Source of the DNA: Escherichia coli
Lineage (GTDB): Bacteria; Pseudomonadota; Gammaproteobacteria; Enterobacterales; Enterobacteriaceae
Strand: one strand, 5' to 3'
DNA: 43,500 bases
Assembly: GCF_003334255.1 (NCBI RefSeq)
Contig: NZ_QOWU01000047.1
A program made the position numbers and the translations under genes. Shown piece after piece: positions 18,205 through 28,435 of the stretch; within the stretch, counting starts at the first letter, position 1, and each line of letters begins with the position of its first letter. The notes under the pieces are model-generated. The model was not told where the DNA came from and made no database searches. It worked only from the letters and a program-made list of their open reading frames with translations.

Positions 18205-18480
18205 GTCACCCGTAGGCCTGATAAGACACGTTAAACGTCACATCAGGCATCGCTTGTCGGATGCGGCGCTTGCGCCTTATCCGACCTACATTGGTGGTCC
18301 CCGTAGGCCTGATAAGACACGTTAACCGTCACATCAGGCATCGCTTGTCGGATGCGGCGCTAGCGCCTTATCCGACCTACATTGGTGGTCCCGTAGGCCT
18401 GATAAGACGCGTCAGCGTCGCATCAGGCTTCAATTGCCGGAGAAGGCGATAATGCCTTATCCGGTCTACAGTGCAGGTGA
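18205..18480. repeat. Tandem array of three REP/BIME palindromic units (~91-bp period) in the sucB-sucC intergenic region
   Basis: Unit ...cgtaggcctgataagacacgttaaacgtcacatcaggcatcgcttgtcggatgcggcgcttgcgccttatccgacctacattggtggtcc... begins at 18211, 18302 and 18392; contains the REP consensus (gcctgatgcg...cgcatccggc-type palindromes). Confidence 0.85.
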
Positions 18481-22704: not shown

Positions 22705-22824
22705 GCCTGATGCGCTGCGCTTATCAGGCCTACGGGTAATGACTTGTAGGCCGGATAAGGCGTTCACGCCGCATCCGGCACTGGTTGCCTGATGCGACGC
22801 TTGCGCGTCTTATCAGGCCTACGG
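22705..22824. repeat. REP/BIME palindromic elements in the sdhB-sucA intergenic region
   Basis: gcctgatgcgctgcgcttatcaggcctacg ... ggccggataaggcgttcacgccgcatccggca ... gcctgatgcgacgcttgcgcgtcttatcaggcctacg: typical REP consensus in alternating orientation. Confidence 0.85.
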
Positions 22825-23557: not shown

Positions 23558-25324
23558 TTAGTAAGTACGAATCTTCGGCGGGAATGCCGGGCGCAGTTTC
23601 GGTTCCATGTTGACGCTTCGGCGCGTCATGGATTCCGACTCTGGCAGATACAGGGAGTGGCACAGCCAGTTTTCATCATCACGATCCGGGAAGTCGAAGC
23701 GGCTATGCGCGCCACGGCTTTCGGTACGGAAGTTGGCAGAAACAGCCGTTGCATACGCCGTTTCCATCAGGTTATCCAGTTCCAGGCACTCAACGCGCTG
23801 GGTGTTGAACTCGCTGGAAGTGTCATCCAGACGGGCATTTTTCAGACGCTCGCGGATCACTTTCAACTGCTCAAGCCCTTTCGCCATCGCATCACCTTCA
23901 CGGAAGACCGAGAAGTTATGCTGCATACATTCTTGCAGCGCTTTACGGATCGCCACCGGATCTTCACCGTTACGATTATTGTTCCAGCGGTTCAGGCGAT
24001 CCAGAGACGCTTCAACATCAGACTCGCTGGCATCGCGCAGTGCGCCCTGCTCGGCGATAGACTCTTGCAGATGCAGACCTGCCGCGCGACCAAAGACCAC
24101 CAGGTCCAGCAGCGAGTTGCCGCCCAGACGGTTAGCGCCGTGTACCGATACACAAGCGATTTCACCAACGGCAAACAGTCCCGGAACAACCACATCTTCG
24201 CCTTTCTCATTCACAGTCAGCGCCTGACCGGTAACTTTGGTCGGAATACCGCCCATCATGTAGTGACAGGTTGGGATAACCGGAATCGGCTCTTTCACCG
24301 GATCGACGTGAGCGAAGGTACGGGAAAGCTCCAGGATACCCGGCAGACGGGATTCGAGAACTTCTTTACCCAGGTGATCGAGTTTCAGTTTCGCGTGTGG
24401 CCCCCACGGACCATCACAGCCGCGACCTTCACGGATTTCGATCATGATGGAACGCGCAACCACGTCACGGCCCGCCAGGTCTTTGGCGTTCGGCGCATAA
24501 CGCTCCATAAAACGTTCGCCATGTTTGTTCAGCAGATAACCGCCTTCACCACGGCAACCTTCGGTGACCAGTACGCCCGCACCGGCAATGCCGGTCGGGT
24601 GGAACTGCCACATTTCCATATCCTGCACCGGTACGCCGGCACGGATAGCCATGCCGACACCGTCGCCGGTGTTAATGTGGGCGTTGGTGGTGGACTGATA
24701 AATACGCCCTGCTCCGCCAGTCGCCAGCACGGTAGCGCGGGCTTTGAAATAAACCACTTCACCGGTTTCGATGCACAGTGCGGTACAACCCACCACCGCG
24801 CCATCCTGGTTTTTCACCAGATCCAGCGCATACCACTCGGAGAAAATGGTGGTGTGGTTTTTCAGGTTCTGCTGATAAAGCGTGTGCAACAGTGCGTGAC
24901 CGGTACGGTCAGCTGCTGCCGCAGTGCGTGCCGCCTGCTCGCCGCCGAAGTTTTTCGACTGACCGCCAAACGGACGTTGATAGATACGACCATCATCGAG
25001 ACGCGAGAACGGCAGGCCCATGTGTTCGAGTTCCAGAATCGCTTCCGGCCCGGTTTTACACATATATTCAATCGCGTCCTGGTCACCGATATAGTCCGAC
25101 CCTTTCACGGTGTCGTACATATGCCATTCCCAGTTATCTTCATGGGTATTACCCAGCGCAACGGTAATGCCGCCTTGCGCAGAAACGGTATGGGAACGGG
25201 TCGGGAAGACTTTAGAGAGCAGCGCACAGGTCTGGCCGCTCTGGGAAATTTGCAGCGCCGCGCGCATACCTGCGCCACCGGCACCAATCACAACTGCATC
25301 AAATTCTCTGACTGGCAATTTCAT
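23558..25324 (-). CDS. sdhA: Succinate dehydrogenase flavoprotein subunit
   Basis: ORF translation [24 protein letters not shown]... (FAD-binding GxGxxG); start set at the MKLPVREF Met (588 aa), whose ATG overlaps the sdhD stop (TGATG). Confidence 0.97.
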
Positions 25325-25671
25325 CACACACCCCACACCACAACGAATCCATAAATCACGTAAACCACCAGTGCAACGACAATCACCAGTTGCAGCATCA
25401 GGCGCAAAGCCAGCGGTTTAACGTAGTCGGTCAACACCTGCCACATGCCGATCCAGGCATGGATCAAGATAGAAAACAGCGCCAGCAGGGTGAACACTTT
25501 GGTGAACGCAGAGGCGAAGAAACCGATCCAGACTTCATATGTCAGCTCGCCACTGGTAGCGAAAAAACCGACCATATAAATGATGTAGAGCGTCAGGACG
25601 ATAGCGGTAGCGCGAACGAGGATGAAATCATGTACGCCATTGCGTCCTAATGCGGAGGCGTTGCTTACCAT
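25324..25671 (-). CDS. sdhD: Succinate dehydrogenase hydrophobic membrane anchor subunit
   Basis: 115-aa hydrophobic ORF between sdhC and sdhA. Confidence 0.95.
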
Positions 25672-26054
25672 ACGAGGACTCCTGCGAGAAGTGAAAGCAC
25701 GACAGTAATAACAAAGGAGATTTTGGCGGAGCGTTTACCCGCTTCGAATGTTTCTTCCAGATAGCCAAAATCCATCATCATGTGGCGAATACCTACGACG
25801 ACGTGATACGCCAGAGCGGTAAGGATGCCCCACATGATAAATTTGACGAAGAAGCTGCCCATAATCGCGGAAGCTTGCTCGAAACCTTCAGGGGAAGAGA
25901 GGCTGGTACCCAGAAGCCACAGCAGGATGCCCACTGCAACAAAGGTGATCACACCGGAAACGCGATGGAGAATGGACGCTATCGCCGTGATGGGGAACCG
26001 GATGGTCTGTAGGTCCAGATTAACAGGTCTTTGTTTTTTCACATTTCTTATCAT
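25665..26054 (-). CDS. sdhC: Succinate dehydrogenase cytochrome b556 subunit
   Basis: Hydrophobic [37 protein letters not shown]...; start set at the MIRNV Met (129 aa); an in-frame Met 5 codons upstream (26069) is an alternative start. Confidence 0.92.
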
Positions 26055-26762
26055 GAATAACGCCCACATGCTGTTCTTATTATTCCCTGGGGACTACGGG
26101 CACAGAGGTTAACTTTCTGTTACCTGGAGACGTCGGGATTTCCTTCCTCCGGTCTGCTTGCGGGTCAGACAGCGTCCTTTCTATAACTGCGCGTCATGCA
26201 AAACACTGCTTCCAGATGCGAAAACGACACGTTACAACGCTGGGTGGCTCGGGATTGCAGGGTGTTCCGGAGACCTGGCGGCAGTATAGGCTGTTCACAA
26301 AATCATTACAATTAACCTACATATAGTTTGTCGGGTTTTATCCTGAACAGTGATCCAGGTCACGATAACAACATTTATTTAATTTTTAATCATCTAATTT
26401 GACAATCATTCAACAAAGTTGTTACAAACATTACCAGGAAAAGCATATAATGCGTAAAAGTTATGAAGTCGGTATTTCACCTAAGATTAACTTATGTAAC
26501 AGTGTGGAAGTATTGACCAATTCATTCGGGACAGTTATTAGTGGTAGACAAGTTTAATAATTCGGATTGCTAAGTACTTGATTCGCCATTTATTCGTCAT
26601 CAATGGATCCTTTACCTGCAAGCGCCCAGAGCTCTGTACCCAGGTTTTCCCCTCTTTCACAGAGCGGCGAGCCAAATAAAAAACGGGTAAAGCCAGGTTG
26701 ATGTGCGAAGGCAAATTTAAGTTCCGGCAGTCTTACGCAATAAGGCGCTAAGGAGACCTTAA
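26055..26762. promoter_or_regulatory. Divergent gltA / sdhCDAB-sucABCD intergenic control region
   Basis: ~700-bp non-coding region between divergently oriented sdhC and gltA, AT-rich in its centre; gltA Shine-Dalgarno TAAGGAGA at 26749-26756. Confidence 0.7.
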
Positions 26763-28046
26763 ATGGCTGATACAAAAGCAAAACTCACCCTCAACGGGGA
26801 TACAGCTGTTGAACTGGATGTGCTGAAAGGCACGCTGGGTCAAGATGTTATTGATATCCGTACTCTCGGTTCAAAAGGTGTGTTCACCTTTGACCCAGGC
26901 TTCACTTCAACCGCATCCTGCGAATCTAAAATTACTTTTATTGATGGTGATGAAGGTATTTTGCTGCACCGCGGTTTCCCGATCGATCAGCTGGCGACCG
27001 ATTCTAACTACCTGGAAGTTTGTTACATCCTGCTGAATGGTGAAAAACCGACTCAGGAACAGTATGACGAATTTAAAACTACGGTGACCCGTCATACCAT
27101 GATCCACGAGCAGATTACCCGTCTGTTCCATGCTTTCCGTCGCGACTCGCATCCAATGGCAGTCATGTGTGGTATTACCGGCGCGCTGGCGGCGTTCTAT
27201 CACGACTCGCTGGATGTTAACAATCCTCGTCACCGTGAAATTGCCGCGTTCCGCCTGCTGTCGAAAATGCCGACCATGGCCGCGATGTGTTACAAGTATT
27301 CCATTGGTCAGCCATTTGTTTACCCGCGCAACGATCTCTCCTACGCCGGTAACTTCCTGAATATGATGTTCTCCACGCCGTGCGAACCGTATGAAGTTAA
27401 TCCGATTCTGGAACGTGCTATGGACCGTATTCTGATCCTGCACGCTGACCATGAACAGAACGCCTCTACCTCCACCGTGCGTACCGCTGGCTCTTCGGGT
27501 GCGAACCCGTTTGCCTGTATCGCAGCAGGTATTGCTTCACTGTGGGGACCTGCGCACGGCGGTGCTAACGAAGCGGCGCTGAAAATGCTGGAAGAAATCA
27601 GCTCCGTTAAACACATTCCGGAATTTGTTCGTCGTGCGAAAGACAAAAATGATTCTTTCCGCCTGATGGGCTTCGGTCACCGCGTGTACAAAAATTACGA
27701 CCCGCGCGCCACCGTAATGCGTGAAACCTGCCATGAAGTGCTGAAAGAGCTGGGCACGAAGGATGACCTGCTGGAAGTGGCTATGGAGCTGGAAAACATC
27801 GCGCTGAACGACCCGTACTTTATCGAGAAGAAACTGTACCCGAACGTCGATTTCTACTCTGGTATCATCCTGAAAGCGATGGGTATTCCGTCTTCCATGT
27901 TCACCGTCATTTTCGCAATGGCACGTACCGTTGGCTGGATCGCCCACTGGAGCGAAATGCACAGTGACGGTATGAAGATTGCCCGTCCGCGTCAGCTGTA
28001 TACAGGATATGAAAAACGCGACTTTAAAAGCGATATCAAGCGTTAA
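26763..28046 (+). CDS. gltA: Citrate synthase (type II, hexameric)
   Basis: 427-aa [50 protein letters not shown]... with GFGHRVYK active-site motif. Confidence 0.97.
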
Positions 28047-28074
28047 TGGTTGATTGCTAAGTTGTAAATATTTT

Positions 28075-28106
28075 AACCCGCCGTTCATATGGCGGGTTGA
28101 TTTTTA
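28075..28106 (+). terminator. Rho-independent terminator of gltA
   Basis: Hairpin aacccgcc-gttcatat-ggcgggtt followed by gattttta, 29 nt after the gltA stop. Confidence 0.8.
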
Positions 28107-28435
28107 TATGCCTAAACACAAAAAATTGTAAAAATAAAATCCATTAACAGACCTATATAGATATTTAAAAAGAATAGAACAGCTCAAATTATCAGCAACC
28201 CAATACTTTCAATTAAAAACTTCATGGTAGTCGCATTTATAACCCTATGAAAATGACGTCTATCTATACCCCCCTATATTTTATTCATCATACAACAAAT
28301 TCATGATACCAATAATTTAGTTTTGCATTTAATAAAACTAACAATATTTTTAAGCAAAACTAAAAACTAGCAATAATCAAATACGATATTCTGGCGTAGC
28401 TATACCCCTATTCTATATCCTTAAAGGACTCTGTT
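28107..28435. promoter_or_regulatory. Strongly AT-rich upstream region of the ybgD fimbrial operon (candidate nucleoid-protein-silenced promoter)
   Basis: ~330 bp of very low GC content with multiple A/T tracts immediately upstream of ybgD. Confidence 0.5.

Follow-up and report, generated by a model that had tools for sequence, protein, structure and literature searches.

Architecture and conservation of the divergent gltA/sdhC control region of Escherichia coli

The divergent TCA-cycle units gltA and sdhCDAB-sucABCD are separated by a long spacer, which raises the question of what this DNA holds: control elements, small proteins, structured leader RNAs or several of these at once. We analysed the locus in a stretch of 43,500 nucleotides from Escherichia coli (contig NZ_QOWU01000047.1), referred to as the window, and compared it with its counterparts in other Enterobacterales. 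Identity, coordinates, motif conservation, complementarity to small RNAs (sRNAs) and the absence of coding constraint on ybgU were computed here, protein binding, regulation, small-protein detection and RNA 3' ends were taken from the literature, and we infer the Hfq site, the hexamers of the proximal gltA promoter and a transcription start site (TSS) upstream of ybgU.

Window positions 25231-28231 match the reverse complement of MG1655 NC_000913 753000-756000 exactly over 3001 bp. The window corresponds to the MG1655 reverse strand, and MG1655 coordinates are obtained by subtracting the window position from 781231. Because sdhC (129-aa K-12 form, 25665-26054, minus strand) ends at 26054 and gltA (26763-28046, plus strand) starts at 26763, the interval 26055-26762 is the entire divergent spacer, with 708 bp identical to MG1655 754469-755176. 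If the sdhC start of NCBI PGAP were adopted (26069, 15 nt upstream of the K-12 start), the spacer would shrink to 693 bp. The preliminary description of this DNA, which had proposed a divergent control region of about 700 bp with an AT-rich centre, is borne out on both counts. The GC content is 0.31 in the core (26300-26560) compared to 0.43 in the spacer and 0.51 in the window. The spacer is present at full length in 5426/5426 complete E. coli genomes at an identity of at least 95%, and 4659 of them reach at least 99%.

A scan with SdhC yielded 80 loci from Enterobacterales species, 79 of which provided a clean sdhC-gltA spacer. In most of the 79 other Enterobacterales species the spacer measures about 650-710 bp; the typical length is about 650 bp, and Escherichia and the majority of Citrobacter species have about 710 bp. 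The median spacer identity to E. coli is 0.80, as opposed to 0.61-0.63 at the third codon positions of the flanking genes (0.84-0.85 over all their positions), which indicates purifying selection on the whole spacer. The blocks with at least 95% identity among 80 sequences fall on known elements: the sdhC translation-initiation region (26061-26080), the sdhC -10, discriminator and TSS (26265-26290), the sdhC -35 with ArcA repeats (26294-26316), one CRP half-site, the hexamer TTGACA, TGTTACAA, the stretch up to the distal gltA TSS (26456-26464), GCTCTGTACCC in the gltA leader (26631-26641) and the gltA Shine-Dalgarno region (26742-26758). The last of these belongs to a plus-strand element at 26742..26762, in which UAAGGAG (26749-26755) is followed by the spacer to the AUG at 26763.

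In these alignments, the constrained positions are those of the promoter hexamers, the half-sites of the operators and the sRNA sites and not the YbgU reading frame, and the resulting coordinate map accounts for nearly all strong cross-genus conservation by promoter, operator and sRNA sites rather than by YbgU. The interval is almost certainly a shared promoter-operator region flanked by two long 5' leaders, one for gltA and one for sdhCDAB-sucABCD.

No ORF of at least 60 aa lies entirely within 26055-26762, in agreement with the earlier statement that the region holds none with a plausible ribosome-binding site. A 63-aa ORF with a TTG start (26590-26781, minus strand), antisense to the gltA start, begins inside gltA and carries an SD-like GAGG a few bases 5' of the TTG, as read from the sequence. 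It is not conserved: in 47 relatives its length swings between 2 and 78 codons, so we consider this ORF mechanical and reject it as a gene.

Promoters and operators of the AT-rich core

The sdhCDAB promoter occupies 26273..26311 on the minus strand. A consensus scan recovered it as TTGTAA-17-TATACT (26311-26283), with the -35 at 26306-26311 and the -10 at 26283-26288. The same hexamers are listed by Shimada et al. 2014 (PMC3946193), who also list TTGACA-18-TACAAA for gltA and mark HNS for the sdhC-gltA spacer. Both hexamers and the 17-bp spacing are those of a sigma-70 promoter, the TSS at 26273 (-219) follows from published offsets, and the -10 is kept in 79/80 sequences and the -35 in 80/80.

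ArcA-P operators consist of at least two TGTTA-like direct repeats with 11-bp phasing. Two sites of this kind were located in the window, one with four direct repeats (26291..26344) and one with three (26396..26427). Their sequences, and the evidence for binding itself, come from Park et al. 2013 (PMC3798270, supplementary files 4 and 6), who reported two ArcA ChIP-seq regions in the spacer with predicted direct-repeat sites at -71 to -18 of the sdhC TSS and -68 to -37 of the gltA TSS. These offsets define the TSSs used by those authors, 26273 for sdhC (-219) and 26464 for gltA (-299). The expected control by ArcA can thus be placed on published sites with defined coordinates.

In the gltA direction, the three-repeat operator overlaps an upstream promoter (26399..26428, plus strand; combined element 26396..26428) in which TTGACA (26399-26404) and TACAAA (26423-26428) are 18 bp apart. 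TTGACA is kept in 79/80 sequences, and TACAA followed by A or C in 78/80. This promoter would start transcription near 26436 and would be an alternative distal promoter of gltA. Further downstream, a TATAAT box (26446-26451, kept in 68/80) precedes the catalogued distal TSS, which the offset of Park et al. places at 26464 (together 26446..26464, plus strand). The -10 and TSS are 13 nt apart here; the catalogued position is therefore approximate, given that a sigma-70 -10 hexamer normally lies 6-8 nt upstream of the TSS. The proximal gltA TSS, reportedly at -196 (Wilde & Guest 1986), would correspond to a position near 26567, and AATAAT at 26556-26561 fits as its putative -10 (26556..26567, plus strand). 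PMC4718724 cites two gltA TSSs, gltAp1 and gltAp2 (Wilde & Guest 1986).

Between the promoters of the two units lies a CRP-type palindrome, aGTGATCCAGGTCACg (26349..26364), whose centre is 83.5 bp upstream of the sdhC TSS. With aGTGA-N6-TCACg it agrees at 8/10 positions with TGTGA-N6-TCACA, the palindrome of a CRP site, and among 80 sequences the half-sites are invariant while the N6 spacer is free to vary. A single CRP site shared by gltA and sdhCDAB, bound in SELEX, has been described (PMC3105977), and the CRP input that the preliminary description anticipated can be assigned to this palindrome. Fur binding together with anaerobic repression of gltA, and antagonism between sigma-S and sigma-70 at Psdh, are also reported in the literature.

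Taken together, the AT-rich centre would consist of back-to-back sigma-70 promoters, one for sdhC (TSS 26273) and at least two in the gltA direction. The two ArcA-P operators overlap these promoters and would mediate anaerobic repression, and the one shared CRP site would serve both directions, with Fur, sigma-S RNA polymerase and H-NS also reported to act.

Small ORFs and RNA 3' ends in the gltA direction

The centre of the spacer carries two annotated small genes on the plus strand (RefSeq MG1655): ybgU (b4735, 35 aa, 26450..26557) and ybgV (b4768, 10 aa, 26541..26573), a small protein or uORF with a GTG start. Translation of both in E. coli is documented. YbgU was detected by immunoblot with a chromosomal SPA tag and in tetracycline-arrested ribosome profiling (PMC6001520). 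YbgV, which overlaps the 3' end of ybgU, emerged from retapamulin/Onc112 ribosome profiling, was detected as a tagged protein and accumulates above the level of YbgU (bioRxiv 10.1101/511675).

The position of ybgU bears on the promoters, as its ATG (26450-26452) shares bases with the TATAAT box and precedes the catalogued distal gltA TSS, so that its mRNA must begin further upstream. The most plausible start is the one near 26436 served by TTGACA-18-TACAAA, although the literature searched yielded no documented transcript start upstream of the ybgU AUG. YbgU and YbgV would then be translated from the longer gltA-direction transcripts, with a strong RNA 3' end after ybgV.

The detection of both products as chromosomally tagged proteins, the profiling signal of YbgU and the annotation of ybgU by PGAP in 20/20 E. 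coli genomes sampled over the identity range could mean that the small proteins YbgU and YbgV have each been selected for a function, and that the spacer centre is truly protein-coding. The comparison across species makes this distinctly unlikely. Among 79 orthologous stretches from other species, an ATG followed by 33-35 codons is present in only 21, whereas the ORF is cut short in 29 and lengthened in 7, and the other 22 have no ATG. The AGGA Shine-Dalgarno of ybgU occurs in 5/80 sequences, as opposed to 68/80 for the overlapping TATAAT, a hexamer that is still kept where the ATG has turned into ATT or ATA. Substitutions in ybgU show no third-position excess (permutation p = 0.29), amino-acid changes are numerous even between close Escherichia relatives, and no NCBIfam family matches YbgU. 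We therefore reject YbgU as a conserved protein, despite its documented translation in E. coli. Since the ORF is not maintained outside Escherichia while TATAAT persists, the constraint lies on the promoter DNA and not on the protein.

A different pattern is shown by ybgV. Its GTG is kept in 78/79 sequences and the preceding GGAC/GGGA is conserved, but the ORF ranges from 1 to 49 codons and the peptide changes in sequence and length from one genus to another, which also speaks against a selected peptide. This pattern fits either a uORF whose translation matters or the mere overlap with the proximal gltA promoter. The literature searched contains no test of an effect of ybgV translation on gltA.

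Just beyond ybgV, the Term-seq supplement of Adams et al. (PMC7815308) places a strong RNA 3' end at 26584 on the plus strand (MG1655 754647), at -179 of gltA and 11 nt past the ybgV stop. Its read score is 45,526, compared to about 2,200 for the ends that the same supplement gives in the sdhC leader at 26133 and 26140 on the minus strand (MG1655 755098 and 755091; -79 and -86). The sdhC-leader ends (26133..26140) come just after the GGA-rich CCGGAGGAAGGAAA (26139-26152). In the data of Adams et al. the 26584 end is not Rho-dependent, and ybgV-gltA is one of the uORFs given there as uncharacterised and followed by a 3' end within less than 200 nt.

This listing and the high read score would agree with a translation-coupled attenuator, in which premature termination or processing after ybgV, at a frequency set by ybgV translation, tunes transcription from the distal promoter into gltA. 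Conservation of the GTG and its preceding motif at variable ORF length is what is expected if the act of translation matters, yet it is confounded by the overlapping proximal promoter. Similarly, one stem pair before the 3' end (columns 24-52 of alignment A3) varies between GC, GU and AU, but the hand-drawn E. coli stem is a weak, AU-rich helix of 5 bp with a 23-nt loop, only 3-4 of its pairs persist across taxa, and the RNAalifold consensus of the ybgV/3'-end region in A3 amounts to 0 kcal/mol. The ybgU-ybgV RNA (26435-26600) folds no better than shuffles (z +0.56), and the scan at 26584 found no intrinsic terminator, that is, no GC-rich hairpin with a U-tract. This 3' end thus has no recognisable terminator, and we consider the attenuator unlikely. 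It is also rather unlikely, in our estimate, that distal gltA transcripts end in a translation-dependent manner 11 nt past ybgV, which would either attenuate the expression of citrate synthase or release ybgU and ybgV on a discrete RNA of about 120-150 nt.

The same scan returned a terminator-like match at 26123-26137 on the plus strand. With 1 match found where 0.9 are expected it is at chance level, its strand is the wrong one for sdhC, and it was discarded.

Small-RNA sites and a probable repeat remnant in the leaders

Previous studies have reported that RyhB, Spot 42 and RybB act on sdhC (PMC6393394) and that gltA is a Spot 42 target (PMC8534726). According to PMC5861419, which summarises Desnoyers & Masse 2012, Spot 42 pairs with sdhC about 50 nt ahead of the AUG, Hfq is recruited near the sdhC RBS, and Hfq itself is regarded as the repressor. 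Targets of Spot 42 pair with the unstructured 5' region of this sRNA, and targets of RyhB with its core (about nt 35-62). We located the corresponding elements by computing complementarity. The sdhC translation-initiation region (26061..26084, minus strand) comprises AUGUGGGCG at 26061-26069, complementary to RyhB, and the A-rich AAUAAUAAGAAC at 26073-26084, which we infer to be the Hfq site. Nucleotides 4-15 of Spot 42 pair over 12 bp with ACCUCUGUGCCC at -55..-44 of sdhC (26098-26109, minus strand). RyhB has 9 bp at the initiation region (-15..-7) and 13 bp at -161..-149. Thus, the Fur-dependent sRNA control of sdh that had been predicted for this region agrees with the literature on RyhB and with two stretches of complementarity.

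On the gltA side, the leader motif GCUCUGUACCC (26631..26641, plus strand) contains at 26632-26641 (-131..-122) a perfect 10-bp match to Spot 42 nt 4-13, and the block that includes this site is common to 80/80 spacers, with every column at 95% or above. When compared to shuffles, these matches are only modestly unusual: the observed complementarity was reached by 13/300 shuffles for Spot 42 on sdhC, 27/300 for Spot 42 on gltA and 2/300 for RyhB on sdhC, and RybB complementarity in the sdhC leader was not above shuffles (150/300). For sdhC and gltA as Spot 42 targets, and for sdhC as a RyhB target, the complementarity is computed here and the repression is taken from the studies above.

In the proposed mechanism, Spot 42 would pair about 50 nt upstream of the AUG in the 219-nt sdhC leader and act via Hfq at the A-rich initiation region, RyhB and RybB would likewise repress through this leader, and the gltA leader would be addressed through its invariant Spot 42 seed site.

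The Spot 42 site of sdhC lies in a segment of about 55 nt (26084..26138, minus strand) that we interpret as an internally deleted ERIC (IRU) remnant. This block is missing from 59/80 spacers, and among the 80 sequences the remnant is confined to Escherichia, Citrobacter, Salmonella and one Intestinirhabdus species. At the same site, and with identical flanks, 6 species carry a full-length element of about 122 bp; they comprise Lelliottia, Leclercia, Huaxiibacter, K. spallanzanii and strain RIT714. ERIC/IRU elements are imperfect palindromes of about 127 bp, multi-copy and intergenic, with a conserved central inverted repeat. In E. coli genomes the 122-bp element has matches at a median of 6 places each, all unannotated, and one dispersed E. 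coli copy contains both ERIC-PCR primer sites (ERIC1R and ERIC2, 21/22), the primer sequences being reportedly those of Versalovic 1991. The short block of Escherichia, Citrobacter and Salmonella aligns to both ends of the element with the middle deleted, and the Spot 42 site is situated in its right end. A BLAST search with a generic E. coli ERIC copy did not detect the 26084-26138 block.

The length of the Spot 42 match was recorded for each state of this locus. It is 11-12 nt in 12/15 short-form spacers, from Escherichia and Citrobacter, 9 nt at the block in Salmonella and 7 nt in Intestinirhabdus, and mostly 6-8 nt in spacers with an empty or full-length state. Based on the sequence evidence, we lean towards the view that Spot 42 control of sdhC may have been exapted from an ERIC repeat that was inserted into the leader and had lost its middle part. 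In the divergent gltA leader, by comparison, the Spot 42 site appears to be ancient. The Spot 42 input to sdhC, being carried by a repeat remnant, appears to be a recent, lineage-specific addition. No report linking ERIC to sdhC or Spot 42 was found in the literature searched, outside which the main ERIC surveys lie. Of the three sRNA inputs into sdhC, one would hence be carried by the remnant of a repeat element and, if confirmed, this would provide a clean case of a dispersed repeat becoming an sRNA target site.

Finally, we assessed whether either leader folds into a structured RNA. Some observations would suit an undescribed cis-regulatory RNA, riboswitch-like or a thermosensor: the conservation of both leaders is unusually high, the fold of the gltA leader is slightly better than those of shuffled sequences (z -1.87, 6/200 as good, which is marginal), and the sdhC leader contains a long-range helix, CAGCGU/ACGCUG, and two pairs with compensatory changes in one lineage. 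Such an RNA is nevertheless highly improbable. The sdhC leader as a whole folds no better than shuffles (z +0.54), the gltA-leader consensus (alignment A1) reaches only -2.4 kcal/mol with one compensatory pair, and the conserved blocks are accounted for by sRNA sites, RBS and promoter elements. Rfam gave no match in 25500-27300 even when E-values up to 1 were admitted, and a run on the whole window at gathering thresholds likewise returned nothing for the interval.

The sdhC leader also contains a small hairpin with a U-run (26200..26219, minus strand; -3 to -9 kcal/mol; mean z -0.75, a weak signal), which recurs in many genera with different stem sequences. The register of the stem shifts between genera. 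In E. coli, the loop and 3' arm of this hairpin (26203-26215) show 13 bp of complementarity to RyhB nt 48-60 and also match RybB nt 3-12. A RyhB-complementary run of 13-15 nt in this upstream part of the sdhC leader was observed in 30/80 taxa.

The preliminary description had recommended the region as a place to look for small ORFs or 5' UTR RNA structure. The recommendation was sound in so far as ybgU, ybgV and leader 3' ends exist, all of them already published; no new structured RNA came out of the tests.

Relation to known systems

The spacer is that of the E. coli K-12 gltA/sdhCDAB-sucABCD region (Park et al. 2013), with identical sequence, coordinates, ArcA sites and hexamers and no difference between the two. 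Through this region, oxygen, carbon source and iron determine how much flux enters the TCA cycle and how abundant succinate dehydrogenase is. Its promoters were reportedly studied by Wilde & Guest in 1986 and by Park, Gunsalus and colleagues in 1994-97. As it ranks among the best-studied control regions of E. coli, it is already known: our analysis confirms that the region is real, that it had been read correctly and that it is well characterised. It is a textbook example of many regulators acting on one spacer, and this confirmation brings no new biology.

Beyond this, ybgV resembles mdtU-mdtJI (Adams et al. 2021) in combining a short translated uORF, a long leader and an RNA 3' end just downstream. 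It differs from that type in that its 3' end is not Rho-dependent and that neither a terminator structure nor a conserved peptide was found. Adams et al. list ybgV as a candidate.

The non-canonical repression of sdhC by Spot 42 and Hfq is the same here as described, with a 12-bp seed match at -55..-44 and an A-rich stretch by the RBS; what is added is that the pairing site sits in what we interpret as an ERIC-repeat remnant. Compared to ERIC/IRU repeats themselves, the full-length copies in the sdhC leader of 6 species resemble the dispersed E. coli copies and show all ERIC features. The E. coli block, unlike a full ERIC/IRU, retains both termini only, over about 55 nt, and we therefore classify it as an ERIC remnant by positional homology and by its intermediates, and not as a full member of the family.

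An ERIC remnant and the Spot 42 site in the sdhC leader

Comparison of the E. coli spacer between sdhC and gltA (26055-26762) with 79 other enterobacterial sdhC-gltA spacers reveals 55 extra nucleotides in the E. coli sdhC leader (26084-26138, - strand), which by positional homology are the remnant of an internally deleted ERIC repeat. Six other species carry a full-length ERIC at the same site, whose position holds no insert in 59 of the 80 spacers. The right end of the remnant contains the sdhC pairing site of the small RNA Spot 42 (26098-26109, - strand). Since the remnant carries this pairing site and most spacers are empty at its position, Spot 42 control of sdhC looks, from the sequences compared, like a lineage-specific exaptation.

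Nearer the coding region (26052-26069, - strand), annotations disagree on the sdhC start: the K-12 annotation places the ATG at 26054 (129 aa), and PGAP uses an in-frame ATG at 26069 (134 aa), which lies within the RyhB-complementary AUGUGGGCG.

The gltA side of the spacer

The ATG of the small gene ybgU (26450-26557) overlaps a conserved TATAAT box (26446-26451) and precedes the catalogued distal gltA TSS (26464) by 14 nt; expression of ybgU therefore needs an undocumented start further upstream. A candidate promoter for this gene is TTGACA-18-TACAAA at 26399-26428. The distance from the TATAAT box to the distal gltA TSS is 13 nt, which is longer than usual.

About 18 nt upstream of an RNA 3' end at 26584 (+ strand) lies what we take to be the proximal gltA TSS. 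No terminator-like hairpin was found at this 3' end. It is a strong Term-seq end, located 11 nt past the ybgV stop, and the published data show no Rho dependence for it (PMC7815308).

Insertions at other places in the spacer occur among the other species: in Buttiauxella noackiae (locus L073) an ERIC-like element, about 125 bp long, sits inside the ybgV/proximal-promoter region, the gltA leaders of C. sedlakii (L009) and S. enterica arizonae (L021) carry a block of about 50 bp, and the spacer of Intestinirhabdus alba (L059) reaches 1159 bp. Rfam matches elsewhere in the window (1513-1651; 18215-18377; 22749-22819; 40201-40243; 1-586) are the CpoB/ybgF thermometer, three REP-derived naRNA4 copies that flank the suc genes, the sRNA ES036 and the tRNA-Lys/Val cluster with RtT repeats, all of them expected at this K-12 chromosome location.

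Upstream complementarity and predicted pairing in the sdhC leader

Sequence complementarity points to a candidate RyhB/RybB site at 26200-26219 (- strand), where RyhB nt 48-60 match the leader over 13 bp, 150-160 nt 5' of the AUG, overlapping a 10-bp RybB seed match. A small hairpin with a UUUU tail contains the complementary stretch in its loop and 3' arm. The 13-bp RyhB match occurs in 30/80 taxa, and the hairpin with its U-run is seen repeatedly across taxa with differing stems.

For the sdhC leader (alignment A4), pairing is predicted between the 5' segment UCCC...CAGCGU (about 26236-26260, - strand) on one side and ACGCUG plus the GGA-rich CCGGAGGAAGG (26139-26152, - strand) on the other. 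All predicted pairs are invariant except two, and these are compensatory in one Buttiauxella-like lineage. The GGA-rich CCGGAGGAAGG resembles CsrA-type motifs.
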